Notes under the pieces: generated by a model | The model's input: only the letters and a program-made list of their open reading frames with translations | Told to the model about the DNA's origin: nothing | The model's database searches: none | Sequence record: KP869111 | Length of the DNA stretch: 64,000 nucleotides | From: Escherichia coli O157 typing phage 13 | Strand: one strand, 5' to 3' | Made by a program: the position numbers and the translations under genes | In this document: positions 1,442-29,555 of the stretch, piece after piece | How the letters are laid out: the number at the start of each line of letters is the position of its first letter | Position numbering within the stretch: position 1 is the first letter of the stretch

Positions 1442-3004
1442 ATGACTACTATCAAAACTAAAGCTCAGCTCGTAGACAAATGGAAAGAACTGCTGGAAGG
1501 TGAAGGCCTGCCGGAAATCGCTAATAGCAAGCAGGCTATTATCGCTAAAATCTTCGAAAACCAGGAAAAAGATTTCGAAGTATCCCCTGAATATAAAGAC
1601 GAGAAAATCGCTCAGGCATTTGGTTCTTTCTTGACCGAAGCTGAAATTGGTGGTGACCATGGTTATAATGCTCAGAACATCGCAGCAGGTCAAACCTCTG
1701 GTGCAGTAACCCAAATTGGGCCAGCAGTTATGGGTATGGTTCGTCGTGCTATTCCTAATCTGATCGCTTTTGATATTTGTGGTGTTCAGCCTATGAACAG
1801 CCCTACCGGTCAGGTATTTGCTCTCCGTGCAGTATATGGTAAAGACCCTATCGCTGCTGACGCTAAAGAAGCTTTCCATCCGATGTATGCTCCAGATGCG
1901 ATGTTCTCTGGTCAGGGTGCTGCTAAGAAATTCCCAGCTCTGGCTGCTAGCACACAAACCACAGTAGGTGATATCTATACTCACTTCTTCCAGGAAACTG
2001 GTACTGTATATCTGCAAGCTTCTGTTCAAGTAACAATCGATGCGACCGATGCTGCTAAATTAGATGCCGAAGTTAAGAAACAAATGGAAGCTGGTGCACT
2101 GGTAGAAATCGCTGAAGGTATGGCTACTTCTATCGCTGAACTCCAGGAAGGTTTCAACGGTTCTACCGATAACCCATGGAATGAAATGGGCTTCCGTATC
2201 GATAAACAAGTTATTGAAGCTAAATCTCGCCAGCTGAAAGCTGCTTACTCTATCGAATTAGCACAAGACCTCCGTGCAGTACACGGTATGGATGCTGATG
2301 CTGAACTGAGCGGTATTCTGGCTACAGAAATTATGCTAGAAATCAACCGTGAAGTTGTTGATTGGATTAACTACTCAGCACAGGTTGGTAAATCTGGTAT
2401 GACCCTGACTCCGGGTTCTAAAGCTGGTGTATTTGACTTCCAGGACCCGATTGATATCCGTGGTGCTCGTTGGGCCGGTGAAAGCTTTAAATCTCTGTTG
2501 TTCCAGATTGATAAAGAAGCAGTTGAAATTGCTCGTCAAACCGGTCGTGGTGAAGGTAACTTCATTATCGCTTCCCGTAACGTAGTTAACGTACTGGCTT
2601 CAGTTGATACTGGTATTTCTTACGCTGCACAGGGTCTGGCTTCCGGTTTTAATACCGACACTACTAAGTCTGTATTTGCCGGTGTACTTGGTGGTAAATA
2701 CCGCGTATACATCGACCAGTATGCTAAACAGGATTATTTCACCGTTGGTTACAAAGGCGCTAACGAAATGGATGCAGGTATTTACTATGCTCCTTACGTT
2801 GCACTTACCCCACTGCGTGGTTCTGATCCTAAGAACTTCCAGCCGGTAATGGGCTTTAAAACTCGTTACGGTATCGGTGTTAACCCGTTTGCTGAAAGTT
2901 CCCTGCAGGCTCCAGGTGCTCGCATCCAGTCCGGTATGCCATCTATCCTGAACAGCCTTGGTAAGAACGCTTACTTCCGCCGTGTATATGTAAAAGGCAT
3001 CTAA
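1442..3004 (+). CDS. 23: major capsid protein gp23
   Basis: 520 aa; near-identical to T4 gp23 over its length (T4 is 521 aa). Confidence 0.97.
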   Translation: MTTIKTKAQLVDKWKELLEGEGLPEIANSKQAIIAKIFENQEKDFEVSPEYKDEKIAQAFGSFLTEAEIGGDHGYNAQNIAAGQTSGAVTQIGPAVMGMVRRAIPNLIAFDICGVQPMNSPTGQVFALRAVYGKDPIAADAKEAFHPMYAPDAMFSGQGAAKKFPALAASTQTTVGDIYTHFFQETGTVYLQASVQVTIDATDAAKLDAEVKKQMEAGALVEIAEGMATSIAELQEGFNGSTDNPWNEMGFRIDKQVIEAKSRQLKAAYSIELAQDLRAVHGMDADAELSGILATEIMLEINREVVDWINYSAQVGKSGMTLTPGSKAGVFDFQDPIDIRGARWAGESFKSLLFQIDKEAVEIARQTGRGEGNFIIASRNVVNVLASVDTGISYAAQGLASGFNTDTTKSVFAGVLGGKYRVYIDQYAKQDYFTVGYKGANEMDAGIYYAPYVALTPLRGSDPKNFQPVMGFKTRYGIGVNPFAESSLQAPGARIQSGMPSILNSLGKNAYFRRVYVKGI

Positions 3005-3028
3005 TCTTAATTGATTAAATCTTATTTT

Positions 3029-3046
3029 GGGAGACTTCGGTCTCCC
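3029..3046. terminator. GGGAGACTTCGGTCTCCC hairpin (UUCG tetraloop) plus T-run after gene 23
   Basis: perfect 7-bp stem with TTCG loop followed by ATTTTTGGTTTT. Confidence 0.7.
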
Positions 3047-3056
3047 ATTTTTGGTT

Positions 3057-3326
3057 TTATTTCTGTGCAATTTTGATGTAAGTTTTCAAAATATTTTGCC
3101 AATTAGGCATACCTTCTTGGACATATGCCGGAGAACCATCTTTGTTTTTGAATGATGCAAGTTTATCAGTGGCCCAATAACCTTTAGCTCGAGCTTCAGA
3201 ATCAACTTTCATCCATACTTTGTTGAAGGCATTACCATTAACTTTTGCACCATATTTTTCTACTAACTTAACTGCTTCAGCTTCCAGAACTTTTAAAGTA
3301 TCTCGTAAGAAACGTGCTTTAGTCAT
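3057..3326 (-). CDS. hypothetical early protein, antisense to capsid genes (position of segD in T4)
   Basis: 89 aa ORF with Shine-Dalgarno GAGGAG and upstream early-type promoter; no nuclease motifs. Confidence 0.5.
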   Translation of the reverse strand: MTKARFLRDTLKVLEAEAVKLVEKYGAKVNGNAFNKVWMKVDSEARAKGYWATDKLASFKNKDGSPAYVQEGMPNWQNILKTYIKIAQK

Positions 3327-3427: not shown

Positions 3428-4711
3428 ATGAGTAAAATCCAAAAATTATTGCGTGAATCTACAACGTCTACTAGCAACTCAATTGGTCGCCCAAATCTCG
3501 TTGCTTTGACTCGCGCTACGACTAAATTAATATATTCTGACATTGTAGCAACACAAAGAACTAATCAACCTGTTGCTGCTTTTTATGGTATCAAATATCT
3601 TAACCCAGATAACGAATTCACATTTAAAACCGGTGCTACTTATGCTGGCGAAGTTGGATATGTAGACCGAGAAAAAATTACTGAACTCACAGAAGAATCA
3701 AAAGTCACACTAAATAAAGGTGATTTTTTCAAATATAATAATATCGTCTATAAAGTGTTAGAAGATACACCATTTGCAGATATTCAAGAAAGTGATCTAG
3801 AATTAGCTCTTCAGATTGCAGTCGTTCATTTAAAGGTACGGTTATTTTCAGATGCAGCGGTAACAAGCAAATTTGAAAGCTCTGATAGCGAAATTTCTGA
3901 TGCAAGATTCCAGATTAATAAATGGCAAACTTCAGTCAAATCTCGCAAACTTAAAACTGGTCTCACGGTTGAATTAGCGCAAGATTTGGAAGCGAATGGA
4001 TTTGATGCCCCTAACTTCTTAGAGGATTTGCTTGCTACTGAAATGGCTGATGAAATTAATAAAGATATTCTTCAGTCTTTAATTACTGTATCGAAACGTT
4101 ATAAAGTTACTGGAATTACTGACACCGGATTTATTGACTTGAGCTATGCATCCGCTCCAGAAGCAGGTCGTTCATTATATCGAATGGTGTGTGAAATGGT
4201 ATCACACATTCAAAAAGAGACAACTTATACTGCAACGTTTTGTGTAGCCTCAGCTCGTGCAGCTGCTATTCTTGCTGCTTCCGGTTGGTTAAAACATAAG
4301 CCAGAAGATGACAAGTATCTTTCACAAAATGCTTATGGATTCTTGGCAAATGGATTACCTCTTTACTGCGATACCAACAGTCCGTTAGATTATGTTATTG
4401 TTGGTGTTGTAGAAAATATCGGCGAAAAAGAAATTGTAGGGTCCATCTTTTATGCTCCATACACTGAAGGAGTAGATTTAGATGACCCGGAACATGTTGG
4501 TGCATTTAAAGTTGTAGTTGATCCAGAAAGCTTGCAACCGTCTATCGGATTATTGGTTAGATATGCTTTATCAGCAAATCCTTACACAGTAGCAAAAGAC
4601 GAAAAAGAAGCGAGAATAATTGATGGTGGGGACATGGATAAAATGGCAGGACGTTCAGACTTGTCTGTTTTACTCGGTGTTAAATTGCCTAAAATTATTA
4701 TAGATGAATAA
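3428..4711 (+). CDS. 24: capsid vertex protein gp24
   Basis: 427 aa, same length as T4 gp24; gp23 paralogue downstream of 23. Confidence 0.95.
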   Translation: MSKIQKLLRESTTSTSNSIGRPNLVALTRATTKLIYSDIVATQRTNQPVAAFYGIKYLNPDNEFTFKTGATYAGEVGYVDREKITELTEESKVTLNKGDFFKYNNIVYKVLEDTPFADIQESDLELALQIAVVHLKVRLFSDAAVTSKFESSDSEISDARFQINKWQTSVKSRKLKTGLTVELAQDLEANGFDAPNFLEDLLATEMADEINKDILQSLITVSKRYKVTGITDTGFIDLSYASAPEAGRSLYRMVCEMVSHIQKETTYTATFCVASARAAAILAASGWLKHKPEDDKYLSQNAYGFLANGLPLYCDTNSPLDYVIVGVVENIGEKEIVGSIFYAPYTEGVDLDDPEHVGAFKVVVDPESLQPSIGLLVRYALSANPYTVAKDEKEARIIDGGDMDKMAGRSDLSVLLGVKLPKIIIDE

Positions 4712-7832: not shown

Positions 7833-8501
7833 TTATTTTAATGTTATGAAAGAAGAATTACGAGTTTCACGAATTAGAACTGATCCGTCGCGATTAATAT
7901 AATAAATTAAGCTAAATAATGTTTGGTGAGCAGAAGCATGTACAAAACTAGTTGGGCGAGATTTCCAATCTGGGGTTTCGGCTATCCATTGATAAATCCA
8001 CCAAGGAACAGTAACATACCCTGGGCCTTTGCCTAATTTAATGAGTGTAGGACTAAAATTTTCAGGCAGAACAAATTTTACTTCTTTATTTACCTCTGAC
8101 TCAGGCTCTTTTTCAGATTCAACAACCTGAGTAATTGCTTCTTCGAATTTATCATGGTCGAATTCTTTTTCTTGTTCGACAACTTCTAATACTTCAACTT
8201 GTTCTGTTGGAGAATCAAACAACAGAATAGCTTCTTCTTTAACTTCTTCGTTGGTGAAATTAACACCATCCACATCATCTGCGGCAGTAATTAAATCAGT
8301 GATAGATAATCCATCAGTTTCAGGTAATGGTTCATCAGCCAGTGCGTTAAGAGCTTCTTCGATATCAATAACAATATTATCGAATGATTTTGTTTTCTTA
8401 ACACTAATGCCAAATTGTTTCGCATATTCGAACAGTTTAGCTTTGGCTTCCTTTTTATCAGAAAGAGCACGTAACTCTTCAATATAGTCTTTATCGATCA
8501 T
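7833..8501 (-). CDS. inh: Inh (inhibitor of prohead protease)-like protein
   Basis: 222 aa acidic protein between hoc and uvsW, as in T4 (226 aa). Confidence 0.65.
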   Translation of the reverse strand: MIDKDYIEELRALSDKKEAKAKLFEYAKQFGISVKKTKSFDNIVIDIEEALNALADEPLPETDGLSITDLITAADDVDGVNFTNEEVKEEAILLFDSPTEQVEVLEVVEQEKEFDHDKFEEAITQVVESEKEPESEVNKEVKFVLPENFSPTLIKLGKGPGYVTVPWWIYQWIAETPDWKSRPTSFVHASAHQTLFSLIYYINRDGSVLIRETRNSSFITLK

Positions 8502-8513
8502 GGTATTTCCTCA

Positions 8514-8521
8514 TTATAAAT
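8514..8521 (+). promoter_or_regulatory. late promoter (TATAAATA) for uvsW
   Basis: exact TATAAATA 30 nt upstream of uvsW ATG. Confidence 0.5.
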
Positions 8522-8551
8522 ATAACTATATTTATTACATGGTAATTTGAC

Positions 8552-10066
8552 ATGACTGACATTAAAGTACATTTTTATGATTTTAGTCACGTGCGCATTG
8601 AATGCGACGAAAGTACGTTTTATGAACTTCGTGACTTTTTTAGCTTTGAAGCTGACGGGTATAAATTTAACCCAAAATATCGCTATGGGCAATGGGATGG
8701 TAGAATTCGACTTTTAGATTACAATCGTTTGTTACCATATGGACTTGTAGGACAAATAAAAAAGTTCTGTAACAATATGAGTTATTCTGTATGGATTGAC
8801 CCTAAAATCTTTGAGACTGAAGACCTTACCAGGGAAGATTTTGACGCATGGCTTTCTAAACAAGAAATTTATTCGGGCAACACCAAAATCGAACCACATT
8901 GGTATCAAAAAGATGCAGTATATGAAGGACTAGTTAATCGTCGTCGAATTTTAAACCTTCCGACATCAGCAGGTAAATCACTAATCCAAGCACTTTTAGC
9001 TCGGTATTATTTAGAGAACTATGAAGGTAAAATTCTCATTATCGTCCCTACAACAGCATTGACAACCCAAATGGCTAATGATTTTGTTGATTATCGCTTG
9101 TTTAGTCATTCGATGATTAAGAAAATTGGCGGTGGTGCTGATAAAGCGGACAAATCTAAAAACGACGCTCCAATTATTGTTGGCACATGGCAAACGGTAG
9201 TTAAGCAGCCTAAAGAATGGTTCTCTCAGTTCGGTATGATGATGAACGATGAATGCCACTTAGCAACAGGCAAAAGTATTTCTTCAATCATCGCAGGATT
9301 AAATAATTGCATGTTTAAATTCGGTTTATCCGGCTCATTAAGAGACGGAAAAGCCAATGTAATGCAGTACGTAGGTATGTTCGGCGAAATCTTCCGTCCT
9401 GTTAGCACGTCTAAATTAATGGAAGACGGACAGGTAACTGAGCTTAAGATTAATAGTATTTTCCTTCGTTATCCGGACGAATTCACCGTTAAATTAAAAG
9501 GTAAAACATACCAAGAAGAAGTTAAAATTATTACCGGACTAAAACGTCGTACAAAGTGGATTGCTCAACTTTCGGTCAAATTGGCTAAGAAAGACGAGAA
9601 CGCCTTTGTAATGTTTAAACACGTTACACACGGTAAAGAAATATTTGAAGCTATTAAAGAGCTTGGATACGAAAAAGTTTATTACGTATCAGGTGAAGTT
9701 GATACTGAAACACGTAACGCGCTTAAAGTCATGGCAGAAAATGGTAAAGGCATTATTATTGTCGCATCATATGGAGTATTCTCTACTGGTATTTCAGTCA
9801 AGAATCTTCATCATGTTATTTTTGCTCATGGTGTTAAATCAAAAATTATCGTACTTCAAACCGTAGGTCGTGTGCTTCGCAAGCATGGTTCTAAAGCTGT
9901 TGCTACAGTTTGGGATCTCATCGACGATGCAGGTGTAAAACCTAAATCATTAAATACTAAAAAGAAGTATACTCATCTTAATTACTTGTTAAAACACGGT
10001 ATTGATCGTATCCAACGTTACGCTGATGAGAAATTTAACTATGTAATGAAAACAATTAATTTATAA
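8552..10066 (+). CDS. uvsW: UvsW SF2 DNA/RNA helicase
   Basis: 504 aa; Walker A PTSAGKS, DECH box, helicase C motifs; matches T4 UvsW. Confidence 0.95.
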   Translation: MTDIKVHFYDFSHVRIECDESTFYELRDFFSFEADGYKFNPKYRYGQWDGRIRLLDYNRLLPYGLVGQIKKFCNNMSYSVWIDPKIFETEDLTREDFDAWLSKQEIYSGNTKIEPHWYQKDAVYEGLVNRRRILNLPTSAGKSLIQALLARYYLENYEGKILIIVPTTALTTQMANDFVDYRLFSHSMIKKIGGGADKADKSKNDAPIIVGTWQTVVKQPKEWFSQFGMMMNDECHLATGKSISSIIAGLNNCMFKFGLSGSLRDGKANVMQYVGMFGEIFRPVSTSKLMEDGQVTELKINSIFLRYPDEFTVKLKGKTYQEEVKIITGLKRRTKWIAQLSVKLAKKDENAFVMFKHVTHGKEIFEAIKELGYEKVYYVSGEVDTETRNALKVMAENGKGIIIVASYGVFSTGISVKNLHHVIFAHGVKSKIIVLQTVGRVLRKHGSKAVATVWDLIDDAGVKPKSLNTKKKYTHLNYLLKHGIDRIQRYADEKFNYVMKTINL

Positions 10067-18975: not shown

Positions 18976-19013
18976 ATAGGATGATAGTATCACACATCCA
19001 TGTGCTTGTAAAC
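18976..19013 (-). promoter_or_regulatory. early-type promoter (GTTTAC box)
   Basis: GTTTAC, 17-nt spacer, ATACTAT; overlaps 3-prime end of alt. Confidence 0.5.
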
Positions 19014-21100
19014 TATCCTTGAACAAATTTAAACGGAACCGATTCCAAATCCATTAAAGATGCTAACAGTTTCAATCCTTTAGGAGCACTAGTTTTTTCT
19101 ACAAATGAGGAGAACGATACCGGCTCATCCGATTCGATTTCACCCGTCATAGCAACCACCTCGCCTGTTTCCATGAGAACATCACCATCGTAAATTACAG
19201 CTTCGTCCAACTGGTCTGAGGACATAACTTCAGCTTGAATAAATTTAAGGTTGGATTCTAAACCTGCACCAGTGTCAGATGACGCATCTGTAATTTTATT
19301 TATCTGCAAGAGAATGCCTCTAGGCAAAATAATTTCTTGCTCATTAGGGTGATTACTCAACTGTCCTGGATAAATCACGTTAACTTTATGGGCGCCGTCA
19401 ATAGCCCATCCAACGTTAACACGGATTTGTTCTGGTGCATGCATAGCTGTTCTTACTTGACTAGGAGAAATAGTAACACCTTCGTCATTATTGTCAATGT
19501 TAAGCTCTTTGCGAACTTCTTCAGGAGCAAGTCCAAGGGCAACGTTCTCTTTAAACCCGCCAAAAATAATAGGAGCTAATGAAGTAGAAACATAGTTTCT
19601 GAAGTAGAATACCTTATTTTTAACCATTGCTTCGTAAATAGGCATTCTGATAGACTGGGCTCTATACAACGTTAGTCCTTCAGGTAAACGGTCTCCATTT
19701 AAAAACGCCGAATCAAGACCATCAATAGCGCGTTTAACTTCATCTTCATCTGCAACATCATAAAAATCCGGTTTATAACGGCCTAACAACATATTATTGA
19801 TATCGGTATACGCAGAAGAGGCATATTCACGAATAGCTCGTTTTTCAGCAACAGAGTATTGTTTAGGGTCCCGATTCATTGTTATATTAAAGGTGCCTCT
19901 AGCCGATTCTCGTGCATAAGTATACATCACATTAGACAAGAACGCTGATTTACGTTGTTTCCAAGTTTTTTCAGATACTTCAGCTAAAACGTCGTCAGCC
20001 AGTTGGAAATTATCTCGTCTAAAATCTTCAAACCATTCGTCTTTAATAGAGTCTGCAATTTCGTTTGCAGCTTCAACAAAAGCAGCTAATGCTTTAACAG
20101 ATGTTGTTTTTTCAGTTTTAATTTTCTTAGCAAACTTTTCTAAAGTTGGCTTAATAACACTACCATAAGAAACTTCATCAGCAAATCTAAAGGATTCATC
20201 AATACGATTATAAATCTTATTTTCGATATCAGCAACTAGAGTGCCTTTTGCTGTAGACGATGCCTGGGCTAGTACGATTTCATATGCTTCAGGAAGTAAT
20301 TCAGCTGTAGCTGGGCCACTAACTTCTTTAGCAGAATTTTCGTATTTCTGGAATAACTCGCCTTCTTGGCGGTCAGCTTCTAAAGATTGACTTGCTGCAA
20401 TAGCGCGACGAGAAATTTTAGTACGAGCAATAACAGGCTTATCTTTACGTTTTTCTTCTACAGCAGCAATAGAACCAGCGATAGCCGTTTCTTTGGTGAC
20501 TTTTTCGCCAGTCTTTTTACTCACATAAACTTCACCAACATCAGAATCTACTTTCGTGTACAACTCTGTGTTAATGTTAGGGATGCCTTTAATATCTTCA
20601 ATGTTGGCATTTTTACGAACCATCATCACATAGGTGTGTTTACCTGTGAATTGATACATTGCAGACAATACTTTAAAACGACCACCAGTTTTAGTAGAAA
20701 CTAAACGAGCAAGAAGAGTTTGAAGTTGTTGTCCACGTCCTTTCAATTTCTTGGTAGGGAATCGGAACAAAACTGCATCCATACGAAGAGCTTTAACCTG
20801 TTCATACACTGTATTGAAAATGGTGTTGATTGCATCAATAGGAGCAGGACCAAGACCATTTTTTAATTCAGCGAGATTACCCTTTTCAGAAAGACTCATA
20901 ATAACGACATGAGCGTATTTGTCACCAAGTTTAACTTGTTTTACAGCATCGCCTTCGGAAAGGTAAGAGAATAAACGAACTACGATGTTTGTATCGATAT
21001 CACCAATTTTCCAGACTTGTGGAACTTTAGCTTTAGGGTTCAAATTGACGACAGGAAGACTGCCTTCAGATTCAAACACTTCATTTAATTGTTCAGACAT
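19013..21100 (-). CDS. alt: Alt ADP-ribosyltransferase (packaged in head)
   Basis: 695 aa (T4 682); T4 position between 54 and 30. Confidence 0.85.
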   Translation of the reverse strand: MSEQLNEVFESEGSLPVVNLNPKAKVPQVWKIGDIDTNIVVRLFSYLSEGDAVKQVKLGDKYAHVVIMSLSEKGNLAELKNGLGPAPIDAINTIFNTVYEQVKALRMDAVLFRFPTKKLKGRGQQLQTLLARLVSTKTGGRFKVLSAMYQFTGKHTYVMMVRKNANIEDIKGIPNINTELYTKVDSDVGEVYVSKKTGEKVTKETAIAGSIAAVEEKRKDKPVIARTKISRRAIAASQSLEADRQEGELFQKYENSAKEVSGPATAELLPEAYEIVLAQASSTAKGTLVADIENKIYNRIDESFRFADEVSYGSVIKPTLEKFAKKIKTEKTTSVKALAAFVEAANEIADSIKDEWFEDFRRDNFQLADDVLAEVSEKTWKQRKSAFLSNVMYTYARESARGTFNITMNRDPKQYSVAEKRAIREYASSAYTDINNMLLGRYKPDFYDVADEDEVKRAIDGLDSAFLNGDRLPEGLTLYRAQSIRMPIYEAMVKNKVFYFRNYVSTSLAPIIFGGFKENVALGLAPEEVRKELNIDNNDEGVTISPSQVRTAMHAPEQIRVNVGWAIDGAHKVNVIYPGQLSNHPNEQEIILPRGILLQINKITDASSDTGAGLESNLKFIQAEVMSSDQLDEAVIYDGDVLMETGEVVAMTGEIESDEPVSFSSFVEKTSAPKGLKLLASLMDLESVPFKFVQG

Positions 21101-23112: not shown

Positions 23113-23928
23113 TTAACAATTTATAGACCAAGTCCATTTAGACGAATCTAAAGGAAAGTTTTGAATCGTCCACCATGGCTGCATATCGGTTGGTCCTGGA
23201 GTTCGCCAAGTATACGGATTCGACGGAGTGCCAATTTGATTAGGCCATGCACCTGGACTTGTTGCACCAGATTCTTTAAGCAAATCTGCCAATCGTTTTA
23301 AAAGGTCTTCACGATCTGAATCTGAATTATGCTCTGGCGGAACTAAACGAGATTCAATATCATCCCATGTGTGTACACGTTGTGCAGTGCGAGGAATATC
23401 ATCACGTTCACCACGAGCCAACCAATAAATCGGTACATTAAGAATTTCTGCCGCATGGTCACAGTGATGAGCTAAATCGTCAACGTAACAAATCACGTTA
23501 TACTTTGTTTTGGCTAGTTCGAATAATTGTTCTTTTGAAGAATCATGACCACACATCATTACTTCAGAGAAAGCGCCTGGGAACAAAGCATTCAAATTAA
23601 ATTGTCTATTCAATCGAGCATCAATTGAATCGCCTAGTGCCGTCACGGCTACAAAATTATAGTCTTCTTTTAGTTTATTGATAACTCGAAGAGCATCTGA
23701 ATAAGGCGCTAAGTAACGAATAAAATCAGAGCTATTATATTTTTCTATTAATTGTTTACCAAGGTTATCGTCGGTATTGAACAGTTTACCAGGAGAAATA
23801 AATTTTTCGTCCTGAATCATTTTTAAAATATGTTCTAATGGAAGATTATATTTTTGGGCAAAATAAGGAAGTCCAGATTGCCAACTTAAACATACACCAT
23901 CAATATCAGTCAAAATAGTAGGCTTCAT
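23113..23928 (-). CDS. HAD-superfamily hydrolase-like protein with Trp/Pro-rich C-terminal tail (30.2-like position)
   Basis: N-terminal LTDIDGV motif typical of HAD phosphatases; 271 aa. Confidence 0.55.
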   Translation of the reverse strand: MKPTILTDIDGVCLSWQSGLPYFAQKYNLPLEHILKMIQDEKFISPGKLFNTDDNLGKQLIEKYNSSDFIRYLAPYSDALRVINKLKEDYNFVAVTALGDSIDARLNRQFNLNALFPGAFSEVMMCGHDSSKEQLFELAKTKYNVICYVDDLAHHCDHAAEILNVPIYWLARGERDDIPRTAQRVHTWDDIESRLVPPEHNSDSDREDLLKRLADLLKESGATSPGAWPNQIGTPSNPYTWRTPGPTDMQPWWTIQNFPLDSSKWTWSINC

Positions 23929-24392
23929 AAAGAGTCTCTTAATAGGTTTAACACATCAATAAATTCAGCTTCAGTTAGTATTGTATCATCTTTTGTTAGG
24001 TGGCTAGCCATGCTGTGCTTCAAAATTTTTCCTTTAGAGGCTTGTAAGGCATCACGAAACCCCTTATTTTGGATCGCGGCTTCAAAATATGCATTTGTGT
24101 ATAATTCTTTCCACGCTTCGGAGTATCTTGAAAATGGAACTCCTAACCAGAAGAGAGTCCCACGGTCCTGAGCTCTTGCATAAGACCTTCCAGCTTGCTG
24201 TGCAGCCAATCCAGACAACCCAAATATACGTCTTTGTTGTTCAACATTTTTCACCTTACATCCTTGGAGAAATCCTTCAAGACCTCCGAATTGAATACCA
24301 TCCATAACAAAAGGCCATTGAGCAAAGTTACTTAATGCACATGACGGCCACTTGAAATTACTTCTTATTTCTAATTCAGACATCTTTAACAC
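23925..24392 (-). CDS. NADAR/YbiA-like (DUF1768) protein (30.3-like position)
   Basis: SNFAQWPFVMDG...GLEGF segment resembles the YbiA family signature; 155 aa. Confidence 0.7.
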   Translation of the reverse strand: MLKMSELEIRSNFKWPSCALSNFAQWPFVMDGIQFGGLEGFLQGCKVKNVEQQRRIFGLSGLAAQQAGRSYARAQDRGTLFWLGVPFSRYSEAWKELYTNAYFEAAIQNKGFRDALQASKGKILKHSMASHLTKDDTILTEAEFIDVLNLLRDSL

Positions 24393-24591
24393 TTATAATT
24401 TCAACATCAGCCCAATGGTCGTATCCGGGTATACGGTCTTCGATAGATAAATTTCCGTCATTTTTAGGTAGTTTAATCGATGTGATATACGGTTCTAAAT
24501 GGTCTTCTGTATGCGGAGAAACGTCTGTCACACGATAAGTAACTTCAACCATTTCCGTACCAAACAATTTCTGGATTAGTTTATTCAACAT
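24376..24591 (-). CDS. hypothetical protein
   Basis: 71 aa ORF; ATG overlaps the upstream gene stop. Confidence 0.45.
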   Translation of the reverse strand: MLNKLIQKLFGTEMVEVTYRVTDVSPHTEDHLEPYITSIKLPKNDGNLSIEDRIPGYDHWADVEIISVKDV

Positions 24592-24750
24592 GTTTCAACC
24601 CTTTAATAGGAGATAACTCTTTACCCATACGTATGTCAGAAGTCCCATCAACCCATTGAACAGCATACGCTTCATTGATAATTCCAGCGGCGGTTTTAAA
24701 TTCATGGAGAACTTTAAAAATCATCCCAGGGATTCCAACACCTTTTAATT
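24581..24750 (-). CDS. 3-prime fragment of a gene whose 5-prime part lies in the N-run
   Basis: open frame from the N-run to TAA at 24581-24583; GTTTAC promoter box just upstream of the N-run. Confidence 0.3.
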
Positions 24751-24884
24751 NNNNNNNNNNNNNNNNNNNNNNNNNNNNNNNNNNNNNNNNNNNNNNNNNN
24801 NNNNNNNNNNNNNNNNNNNNNNNNNNNNNNNNNNNNNNNNNNNNNNNNNNNNNNNNNNNNNNNNNNNNCGTCCTTGGATGTAAA

Positions 24885-25499
24885 CTACTTAACGAAATTA
24901 ATTTCTACCGGATGAACGACAGGTTGAGCAGTGATATATTGAGTAATTGCTTTCATGACTAGAGCTTCAGAACCAGGATTTTTCTCAACGAATTCACGTG
25001 CTTGGTTATGAGCTTCAAGTTCACTTAGTAAACCACTTCGTTGGCATCCACGGTCTTGAGTACCCTGTTCAGATAAAAAGACGACGATGTATTTTTCATC
25101 GTCATACGGTTTAGACGGTTGAGCAAATGTTCCTTTACTTCCGAAAGGAGAGTTATGACGCCACATATCGCCGTGAGGAGTTTCAACCTTCGTATATTCG
25201 TGCGGGCCATTTTTCTTAATTTCTTGATGTGGAACTTCATAGATCTTAGGGTTAGGACATTCAATAAAATGCTCATCTAAATCAGTCGAGAATATTAAAG
25301 TAAAACAATTACTGAATTTACCGACACCTGCCTGATAAATTTTACCTTCAGAAGTTCTAATTTCACAAACTGAGCCGGCATCAGTAACTTCTAAAACTTC
25401 AAAAGGCTCGATAAGGTCATATGAGAACATGTTTTTAAGGCGTGGAGTAATATCCCCATTTTTAAAATTCATTTTATAAAAAGTATTAACTTTAAACAT
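24885..25499 (-). CDS. hypothetical protein, 204 aa
   Basis: long ORF in the 30.x cluster; no motif recognised. Confidence 0.55.
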   Translation of the reverse strand: MFKVNTFYKMNFKNGDITPRLKNMFSYDLIEPFEVLEVTDAGSVCEIRTSEGKIYQAGVGKFSNCFTLIFSTDLDEHFIECPNPKIYEVPHQEIKKNGPHEYTKVETPHGDMWRHNSPFGSKGTFAQPSKPYDDEKYIVVFLSEQGTQDRGCQRSGLLSELEAHNQAREFVEKNPGSEALVMKAITQYITAQPVVHPVEINFVK

Positions 25500-27981: not shown

Positions 27982-28563
27982 TTATTCACCACAAAAGTTT
28001 CGGATTTGTTCCCAATTCAGAGAACGAAGATTATTACGAGAGTACTGAATTACTTCAATACCGGCTTGTTTTAGAATGTCTGCCCAATTTTCAGGAGATC
28101 TGTCATATAATTCTGCGTATACAACCTTTTTAATACCTGACTGTGTAATAGCTTTAGTGCAATCAGGACATGGAGAAAGTGTCGTATACAACGTAGCACC
28201 TTCAATAGAATTACCTTTACGAGCTGCAAACAAAATTGCATTCAGTTCCGCATGGATTTCGTTATTAGCGGACCATGCACTATGAGCAGCCCGATGTTCT
28301 TTAGCCAAAACAAAATTATCCACCCGTCCAAATGCTGTAGTGCCTTCTTTATGCCCAGCAACGATGACCGGGCTTGGTTTATTCTTCAACCAACCGTTTT
28401 CGGATGCATGTTCACAACAGTTAACACCACCGGCCGGGCTACCGTTATACCCAGTAGAGATAATGCGTCCATCTTTTTCAATGACGGCACCAACTTTCCA
28501 TGAACAACATTTTGATTCTTGAGAAATCAAATAAGCAATTTGAAGATATGTGCTAGCTTTCAT
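27982..28563 (-). CDS. cd: dCMP deaminase
   Basis: 193 aa; HAELNAI and PCPDC zinc-binding deaminase motifs. Confidence 0.95.
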   Translation of the reverse strand: MKASTYLQIAYLISQESKCCSWKVGAVIEKDGRIISTGYNGSPAGGVNCCEHASENGWLKNKPSPVIVAGHKEGTTAFGRVDNFVLAKEHRAAHSAWSANNEIHAELNAILFAARKGNSIEGATLYTTLSPCPDCTKAITQSGIKKVVYAELYDRSPENWADILKQAGIEVIQYSRNNLRSLNWEQIRNFCGE

Positions 28564-29555
28564 TATTGAACCTTATTAATATAAGTTAACAGCTCTTTAG
28601 TTTGTTCCCAACTGATGCACGCATCGGTAACGGAAACGCCATAGGACATATTATCAGAAATTTTTTGATTTCCTTCATGTAGGAATGATTCTATCATAAT
28701 TCCTTTGACCAAATCATTAGCTGCTAAATTTTTACCAATACCAATTTGATTGCTATAATGCCCATCAGCGTTTGCATGGCTACAGTCAACCATTACATAA
28801 TGATTCAGACCTACTGCCCTTGCTTTGTTAGAAGCTTCTTGAATATCAGAAGAATGATAGTTCGGGCCGTTGGTCCCGCCACGCAATACGATATGCGTAT
28901 TCTGATTACCTTCAGCTTCAACAATGCCTACAGTACCATCGACGTCCATACCCATATACCGATGAGGCCAGGCGGCACTATACATCGCGTCTGTAGCTAC
29001 TTTAATAGAACCATTGGTTGCGTTCTTGAAGCCTACGCACATCGGTAGACCTGAAGCAATTTCACGATGTGTCTGACTTTCAGTCGTACGGGCGCCAATA
29101 GCAACCCATGAGAAAATACCAGAAAGATACTTAATCGTGAATGGGTCTAATACTTCAGTTGCTAATGGAAGTCCCATACGTAGAAGTTTACGACACAATG
29201 TTCGTGCAACTATAAGACCGTGGTTCATATCAAAACTTCCGTCAAGATATGGATCATTTACAAGACCTTTCCAACCTACGGTAGTTCGAGGCTTTTCAAA
29301 ATAAACGCGCATCACTAACAGAACATTAGGAAGACGAGTTTGAAGTTCAGCCAGACGTTTGCCGTATTCAACAGCAGCAATAGGGTCATGAATTGAACAA
29401 GGACCTACAACAATAAGTTTGCGTGGGTCTTCACCGTTCATAATCGAATTAACTTGTTCGCGATGAGAAGCCACTTGTGATGCGTAAGCTTCCGACAAAG
29501 GAATAATCTCAGCCAGTTCTTTTGGAGAAATAAGTTTTCCGACGACAGGTAACAT
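28563..29555 (-). CDS. 3-deoxy-D-arabino-heptulosonate-7-phosphate (DAHP) synthase, class I-alpha (AroG/AroF/AroH-like)
   Basis: 330 aa; GPCSIHDP, KPRTTVGWKGL, GARTTESQ, DCSHANA, ESFLHEGNQ and TDACI motifs in AroG-like order. Confidence 0.9.
   Translation of the reverse strand: MLPVVGKLISPKELAEIIPLSEAYASQVASHREQVNSIMNGEDPRKLIVVGPCSIHDPIAAVEYGKRLAELQTRLPNVLLVMRVYFEKPRTTVGWKGLVNDPYLDGSFDMNHGLIVARTLCRKLLRMGLPLATEVLDPFTIKYLSGIFSWVAIGARTTESQTHREIASGLPMCVGFKNATNGSIKVATDAMYSAAWPHRYMGMDVDGTVGIVEAEGNQNTHIVLRGGTNGPNYHSSDIQEASNKARAVGLNHYVMVDCSHANADGHYSNQIGIGKNLAANDLVKGIMIESFLHEGNQKISDNMSYGVSVTDACISWEQTKELLTYINKVQ

Follow-up and report, generated by a model that had tools for sequence, protein, structure and literature searches.

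An intact adfN (gene 30.3) in a Mosigvirus phage and its neighbor, a predicted NT5C-like HAD phosphatase gene

The gene 30.3 product of phage T4 was renamed AdfN (anti-DarT factor NADAR) by Johannesman et al. (Nat Commun 2025; PMC11825919). According to work published in 2024-2025, T4 AdfN is a NADAR DNA ADP-ribosylglycohydrolase that is necessary, and also sufficient, in counter-defense against DarTG1. When adfN was deleted, T4 and T2 could not form plaques on hosts carrying DarTG1, and ectopic AdfN rescued RB69 (PMC11825919). Purified T4 AdfN stripped ADP-ribose from DarT1-modified DNA, an activity that was lost in an E36A mutant, and the protein was weakened by both the E36A and the K43A substitution (PMC11825919). 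Ahel's group has reported that T4 gp30.3 hydrolyzes guanine-ADP-ribose in vitro (PMC11125620, PMC11543638, PMC12945103) and has defined the gp30.3 proteins as a phage NADAR subfamily, distinguished by a histidine in the last strand (PMC11125620, PMC11543638).

Uninfected cells were not shielded from DarT1 by T4 AdfN, which rescued non-T-even phages only in part, and a further T-even factor has been inferred from these observations. In RB69, an extra T at nucleotide 411 of gene 30.3 removes the last 15 residues of the protein, and the phage is sensitive to DarTG1 as a result (PMC11825919).

Gene layout of the 30.3-30.2 region

The window (the whole 64,000-nucleotide stretch of phage DNA that was analyzed) comes from a Mosigvirus, a T4/RB69-like coliphage of the family Straboviridae. 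The 2-kb stretch around the genes described here was 100% identical to the corresponding sequence of E. coli O157 typing phages 3 and 6 and 96 to 98% identical to that of many other Mosigvirus genomes. On the minus strand the genes are ordered alt, alt.1, 30 (DNA ligase), 30.1, 30.2, 30.3, and 30.4 onwards, which matches the order in T4 and RB69.

Two minus-strand open reading frames had been called in the first-pass annotation, and both proved to be real. The smaller, adfN (gene 30.3; 23925..24383, minus strand), encodes a phage-type NADAR protein of 152 amino acids, as assigned from PF08010, T4 orthology, and fold. The larger, gene 30.2 (23113..23928, minus strand), encodes a 271-amino-acid protein that resembles HAD phosphatases, with NT5C as the closest family. 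The matches to PF08010 and phrog_420 identify gp30.3 and gp30.2 as products of conserved genes rather than chance open reading frames. Public records of the phage label both genes "hypothetical protein." The smaller frame had initially been read as 155 amino acids, a length that is obtained from a GTG at position 24392 (23925..24392). The frame itself stands, but its start does not: the annotation and the N termini of homologues support the ATG at 24383, from which a protein of 152 amino acids is read. The segment SNFAQWPFVMDG corresponds to residues 18 to 29 of gp30.3. The 30.2 frame opens with MKPTILTDIDGV, in which DIDGV represents residues 8 to 12.

The immediate upstream neighbor of adfN is gene 30.4 (24376..24591, minus strand), which overlaps the adfN start and encodes a 71-amino-acid protein that matched phrog_2042 (E = 2.8e-34). 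The gene for the Alt ADP-ribosyltransferase, which modifies host RNA polymerase, was located from the RefSeq annotation of an identical record (alt; 19013..21100, minus strand); it lies ∼2.8 kb downstream, past the ligase gene.

Genes 30.3 and 30.2 are co-transcribed and are possibly also translationally coupled. Direct reading of the sequence showed that the stop codon of 30.3 and the start codon of 30.2 overlap in an ATGA at 23925..23928 (minus strand). This overlap was considered as a sign of functional coupling and rejected. Neighboring genes in this region normally overlap (30.4 and 30.3 by 8 nucleotides, 30.1 and 30 by 4 nucleotides), and thus the 30.3/30.2 overlap says little about function. 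A scan for sigma-70 promoters and terminators between 21 and 27 kb gave 19 sites compared to 17.5 expected from shuffled sequence; because this was no better than shuffled sequence, operon boundaries were not drawn. No minus-strand open reading frame of at least 40 amino acids that might correspond to the T4-style internal frame 30.3' was found within adfN.

The gp30.3 protein as a phage NADAR

The window gp30.3 matched the Pfam family PF08010 (Phage_30_3) over all 138 profile positions (1-138; E = 1.9e-69; 232 bits, cut-off 36) and was 97% identical to T4 gp30.3/AdfN across all 152 residues. In order to relate the protein to NADAR enzymes, indirect evidence was required. The Pfam NADAR profile PF08719 had no match to the window protein at E ≤ 0.1. 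PF08719 was matched by 7 of 54 members of the gp30.3 family (best E = 1.5e-7), and the gp30.3 family profile matched E. coli YbiA (2b3w; E = 0.0011) over the SNF...E..Q..K signature.

A search of the PDB with the single gp30.3 sequence found no match, so that it was necessary to turn to the family profile and to a structure model. The AlphaFold model, which was built from 54 sequences, had a mean pLDDT of 93.6. When this model was compared to the PDB with Foldseek, the top three matches were the NADAR structures 2b3w (E = 5e-5; TM, 0.67), 8bau, and 8bat, each with a probability of at least 0.96. Of these, 2b3w is YbiA, 8bau is the Phytophthora enzyme PnNADAR in complex with ADP-ribose, and 8bat is the NADAR of Geobacter lovleyi. 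The remaining PDB matches had E values greater than 4 and probabilities of 0.02 or less, which leaves the three NADAR structures as the only credible matches. Through this combination of transitive and model-based structural links, the window gp30.3 can be assigned to the NADAR superfamily, as had been proposed from the sequence.

The features on which AdfN function depends in T4 could also be recognized. E36 and K43, the residues that are catalytic in T4, were conserved, and the C-terminal helix (residues 138 to 152) was present and predicted to be helical. H123, which lies in the sequence LKHS and is the histidine by which phage NADARs are defined, was invariant among 54 homologues. A pN/pS of 0.04 among Mosigvirus alleles indicated strong purifying selection on adfN. 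RB69 is the closest species-level relative, and its gene is nearly identical to that of the window at the DNA level. However, the window adfN did not have the RB69-type T insertion and was full length, as were the adfN alleles of five other Mosigvirus genomes. Judged by its sequence, the window gene is an intact allele, and the smaller gene can safely be renamed adfN. With an intact allele, and by analogy with T4, the window phage should be resistant to DarTG1, unlike RB69. Resistance of this Mosigvirus versus sensitivity of RB69 represents a simple host-range prediction.

The proposed function of gp30.3 follows that of the T4 protein. It would be a minimal NADAR-fold hydrolase, acting during infection, that would cleave the N-glycosidic bond joining ADP-ribose to guanine in phage DNA modified by host DarT1, and the resulting de-ADP-ribosylation would restore replication on hosts carrying DarTG1. 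We infer this activity for the window AdfN from its near identity to the T4 protein. The NADAR and anti-DarT role that the first-pass annotation suggested for gp30.3 is thus correct, but it was already known through the T4 orthologue (PMC11825919).

It is conceivable that the main substrate of gp30.3 is instead some other ADP-ribosylated nucleic acid, such as RNA carrying guanosine-ADP-ribose, or a soluble immune signal derived from ADP-ribose, and that resistance to DarTG1 is only one facet of its function. In vitro, all NADAR families tested, the T4 protein included, cleared both RNA and DNA of guanosine ADP-ribose (PMC12945103), soluble ADP-ribose derivatives were proposed by Iyer et al. 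as the main targets of phage NADARs, and the lack of antitoxin activity of T4 AdfN in uninfected cells is consistent with such a role. However, the requirement for the gene under DarTG1 is direct and very strong, both in the deletion phenotype and in the published transposon data for T4 (control versus DarTG1), in which 30.3 had a log2FC of -7.25 (Data S6). Furthermore, the T4 protein leaves ADP-ribosylation of cytidine and thymidine unreversed, and there is no report of a soluble-signal phenotype. Thus, it seems unlikely that a substrate other than DarT1-modified DNA is the main one.

The gp30.2 core and its linkage to adfN

The gp30.2 protein was 99% identical to RB69 gp30.2 and 73% identical to T4 gp30.2 and matched phrog_420 (E = 1.9e-78), a family that has no assigned function. 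It is made up of a core (residues 1 to 195), a linker helix (residues 202 to 221), and a disordered tail. The core had the Rossmannoid fold of HAD proteins, in which a cap insertion follows motif I, and all four HAD motifs were conserved, which bears out the earlier HAD call for this protein. D8, D10, K132, D150, and D151 were invariant in 53 homologues and T96 was present in at least 90%; D8, D10, and K132 were still invariant in relatives with only 20 to 38% identity. The second aspartate of HAD motif I is typical of phosphatases, not dehalogenases.

Curated models were less informative. The Pfam HAD_2 score of 16 bits (E = 0.013) was below the cut-off of 23.8, that for NCBIfam TIGR01428 was 12.7 bits compared to a cut-off of 125.4, and the NCBIfam search gave nothing useful for either gp30.3 or gp30.2. 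The gp30.2 family has diverged too far to be recognized by these models, and its HAD membership therefore rests on fold and motifs rather than on a profile match.

Several observations point to the NT5C nucleotidases as the closest relatives. The best PDB sequence match of gp30.2, although weak, was the mitochondrial deoxyribonucleotidase 2jao; when PDB sequences were searched with the family profile, the sole match was a spurious one, to an amidase. The NT5C profile PF06941 did not match the window protein, but it matched 2 of the 53 close homologues and, with a best E of 4.2e-10, 23 of the 68 distant relatives that were tested from the 1017 clusters recovered by an exhaustive profile search at E ≤ 1e-3. 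Two distant viral relatives scored 24.0 and 23.3 bits compared to the PF06941 cut-off of 24.8, and many of the viral fold neighbors of gp30.2 in BFVD carry the name 5' nucleotidase. These results suggest that gp30.2 is a HAD phosphatase that is closest to the NT5C nucleotidases rather than to an ADP-ribose enzyme. With its C1 cap and full DxD catalytic set, it would most likely, by inference, act on (deoxy)nucleoside monophosphates as an NT5C-type phosphatase.

A literature search for gp30.2 and "gene 30.2" did not find a functional study or biochemistry on a homologue. In the published T4 transposon data, of which sheet Data S6 and the first resampling sheet were covered, 72 of 72 sites in 30.2 carried insertions, indicating that the gene is non-essential. 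The log2FC of 30.2 under DarTG1 was -0.12 (P = 0.61; 71 sites), which is neutral (Data S6). Growth in the laboratory thus does not depend on gene 30.2, and neither does counter-defense against DarTG1. Neutral results were also obtained for alt (log2FC, -0.01) and adfA/61.2 (log2FC, -0.34) (Data S6). The only significant gene other than 30.3 was 30.4 (log2FC, -1.79; adjusted P = 0.014; Data S6), and this signal is plausibly a polar effect on adfN.

In order to evaluate the linkage of the two genes in other phages, IMG/VR loci were searched over a range of 4 kb with profile HMMs of the NADAR and gp30.2 families. A NADAR gene was found within this range in 36 of 78 gp30.2 loci, and gp30.2 was found near 21 of 80 NADAR genes, all of them on T4-like contigs. 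Therefore, the 30.2-30.3 neighborhood was not conserved across lineages, just as the T4 transposon data did not show a requirement for each of 30.2, 30.3, and alt in counter-defense. Taken together, the neighborhood and transposon data make it look as though 30.2 and 30.3 are linked through inherited early-region synteny rather than as one functional unit. The two are very probably co-transcribed early accessory genes with functions that are independent on current data, 30.3 being AdfN and 30.2 an NT5C-like HAD phosphatase.

The first-pass annotation had grouped the pair with alt as a compact ADP-ribose-handling cluster. In such a module, ADP-ribose would be freed from DNA by the NADAR enzyme and then processed, as such or in a phosphorylated form, by the HAD enzyme, with Alt on the transferase side. 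The three genes do lie close together on one strand, with the 30.3 stop overlapping the 30.2 start, and in the 36 gp30.2 loci with a nearby NADAR gene, which include distant Straboviridae, that gene was at most 1.6 kb upstream. Early expression of NADAR genes of T4-like phages together with ADP-ribosyltransferases has also been described (Iyer et al.). However, only 30.3 and 30.4 were significant under DarTG1, the remaining 42 of 78 gp30.2 loci had no NADAR gene nearby, and 59 of 80 NADAR loci had no gp30.2 nearby. Several of the genomes without a nearby NADAR gene did have one, ∼55 to 60 kb from gp30.2. The affinity of gp30.2 for nucleotidases also argues against the module, as does the target of Alt, since T4 Alt modifies proteins, not DNA. 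For DarTG1, the grouping is largely refuted, and as a general explanation of the locus it is improbable. In the available data alt is not functionally tied to adfN, and neither alt nor the HAD neighbor should be taken as part of an anti-DarT module.

The proposal that gp30.2 is the T-even factor needed for full AdfN activity, for example through a tail that tethers or stabilizes AdfN, was considered and rejected as very improbable. The authors of the AdfN study do infer a potentiating factor encoded by T-even phages, and gp30.2 is a possibly translationally coupled neighbor that is intact in RB69, a phage in which AdfN supplied ectopically is fully functional. However, insertions at 71 sites in T4 30.2 left fitness under DarTG1 unreduced, whereas a signal in the transposon screen would be expected of a required cofactor. 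Nor did the presence of the Trp/Pro-rich tail follow NADAR adjacency: many phages with an adjacent NADAR gene lacked the tail, and many with a distant NADAR gene had it. Probably, gp30.2 is not the T-even potentiator of AdfN.

With the two genes regarded as functionally independent, gp30.2 represents a widely conserved yet dispensable NT5C-like phosphatase of T4-like phages, and interest centers on its substrate and on the partner of its tail.

The C-terminal tail of gp30.2 and comparison with known systems

The C-terminal extension of gp30.2 (residues 196 to 271 and the stop codon; 23113..23343, minus strand) consists of an amphipathic helix followed by a Trp/Pro-rich tail that is predicted to be disordered and contains WRTPG. 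There are 6 tryptophans and 10 prolines in these 76 residues. In the structure model, residues 202 to 221 formed a confident helix and the pLDDT was below 55 from residue 223 on. Among 100 clusters of the gp30.2 family, 59 had a tail of at least 40 amino acids and 36 ended within 20 amino acids of the core. The long tails were richer than the core in tryptophan (3.5% versus 1.4%) and proline (10.9% versus 4.3%). The motif W[RKV]x[PT][GDM] was found ∼40 residues past the core in 17 of the 59 long tails, with WRTPG as its form in both the window and T4, and a GIEYL motif was found in 15 of the 59 but was absent from the window gp30.2. The recurring motifs W[RKV]xP[GD] and GIEYL are those cited in the docking proposal that is discussed below.

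Among 7 Mosigvirus alleles, the tail had a pN/pS of 0.12, and the sole indel was 9 nucleotides long and in frame. The possibility that the tail is an artefact, in which a frameshift or sequencing error has lengthened a HAD gene of ∼200 amino acids, is barely credible and was rejected on the basis of this purifying selection and in-frame indel: family clusters that stop close to the core, the predicted disorder, and database entries with truncated or fused tails might suggest it, but the same frame with nearly the same tail occurs in RB69 and five other Mosigvirus genomes, and the WRTPG-type motif lies at an equal distance from the core in T4 and many other genera. The tail, which the first-pass annotation had suspected of reflecting a frame error, is a real disordered extension that is under purifying selection and is missing in some lineages.

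What the tail does is a matter of speculation. A fast-evolving Trp/Pro-rich tail would, in one speculative reading, dock gp30.2 to a partner. It is possible, although doubtful, that gp30.2 is a tethered counter-defense phosphatase, the tail of which docks on a phage or host partner while the enzyme hydrolyzes a specific phosphorylated nucleotide, such as a signal derived from a defense system or a toxic nucleotide. If true, this would make gp30.2 a new kind of tethered counter-defense phosphatase rather than a housekeeping nucleotidase. In a weaker variant of this reading, support of AdfN would be shared between gp30.2 and a further, redundant factor, and the neutral transposon result would be accounted for.

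The closest described counterpart of the window gp30.3 is T4 AdfN. The two genes occupy the same position between 30.4 and 30.2, and the proteins share E36, K43, H123, and the C-terminal helix. They differ by five substitutions (K11R, E89P, I120V, M125I, and H128G, with the window residue first) and come from phages of different genera, Tequatrovirus for T4 and Mosigvirus for the window. The NADARs associated with DarG1/DarT1 (G. lovleyi; 8bat) and YbiA (2b3w) have the NADAR fold and the SNF...E..Q..K signature in common with the window gp30.3. According to the literature, DarG1-type NADARs and YbiA also share guanine-ADP-ribose hydrolase chemistry with the phage NADAR. However, DarG1 has an N-terminal extension, whereas phage gp30.3 is a bare core without one, and the last-strand residue is histidine in phage gp30.3, aspartate in DarG1, and glutamate in YbiA. 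Unlike the DarG1-type antitoxins, phage gp30.3 is encoded by an orphan gene without a toxin partner, and T4 gp30.3 does not neutralize DarT1 in uninfected cells. For gp30.2, the nearest named family is that of the NT5C 5'(3')-deoxyribonucleotidases (PF06941), which includes human cdN/mdN (6g2n and 2jao) and the S. epidermidis protein 3bwv.

Gene 30.4 and the interior of adfN

Gene 30.4 (24376-24591, minus strand, 71 aa) lies upstream of adfN. In the published transposon screen of T4, 30.4 was, besides 30.3, the sole gene with a significant effect under DarTG1 (log2 fold change, -1.79; adjusted P = 0.014). Polarity on adfN and a genuine role of 30.4 could each explain this depletion. In T4, an out-of-frame open reading frame (ORF), 30.3', is annotated inside 30.3 (8403-8630 of the T4 comparison locus, L002). 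A scan of adfN in the window (23925-24383) for internal minus-strand ORFs of at least 40 aa found none, and thus 30.3' is not conserved here.

Variation among gp30.3 and gp30.2 homologues

Many T-even-type database entries encode gp30.3 products cut to 86 to 126 aa, some within fusions (truncated or fused homologue proteins P0103 to P0106, P0112, P0113, P0116, and P0150). Because such entries are numerous, adfN decay like that in RB69 may be common. Phage UGJNEcP4 encodes a 91-aa gp30.3 together with a 212-aa gp30.2 that lacks the tail. P0016, a database protein of 302 aa in which the gp30.2 core is joined to gp30.1 (DUF3045) sequence, is a read-through fusion of the adjacent 30.2 and 30.1 genes, whether natural or assembly-derived.

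The gp30.3/AdfN orthologue of Escherichia phage NRG-P0074 (PQ480333; 1126-1584 of comparison locus L164) carries the annotation "virion structural protein." Were proteomic data the source of that annotation, AdfN might travel in the virion and enter the host with the DNA, a route that Iyer et al. have suggested for certain phage NADAR proteins by packaging and injection.

Sequence gap and differences from T4

A run of 118 N (24751-24868) interrupts the 5' end of a 30.5-like ORF (24581-24724 and beyond). RefSeq record NC_041863, which is elsewhere identical to the window, has 66 nt at this position, so that window coordinates downstream of the run are offset by 52 nt from those of NC_041863. 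A 204-aa ORF (24885-25499, minus strand) sits where T4 carries gene 30.6 and RB69 a 30.6-like gene. It belongs to phrog_17531, a family with no assigned function, had no match in a Pfam search, and looks like a lineage-specific replacement within the hypervariable early region.

The dCMP deaminase gene adjoins a 330-aa ORF (28563-29555, minus strand), whose product is given in the identical RefSeq record as an aroF-like phospho-2-dehydro-3-deoxyheptonate aldolase (DAHP synthase). The corresponding position in T4 is occupied solely by small cd.x genes, and therefore the DAHP synthase-annotated ORF is an auxiliary metabolic gene absent from T4.

A possible independent pairing of gp30.2-like and NADAR genes

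The 166-kb viral contig IMGVR_UViG_2786546475_000015 carries a divergent gp30.2-like HAD gene (match E value, 3e-17) and a NADAR gene (2736-3293 and 4001-4438 of comparison locus L115), which may be an independent instance of the two genes occurring together. The HAD gene in this contig is upstream of the NADAR gene, the reverse of the order in T4.
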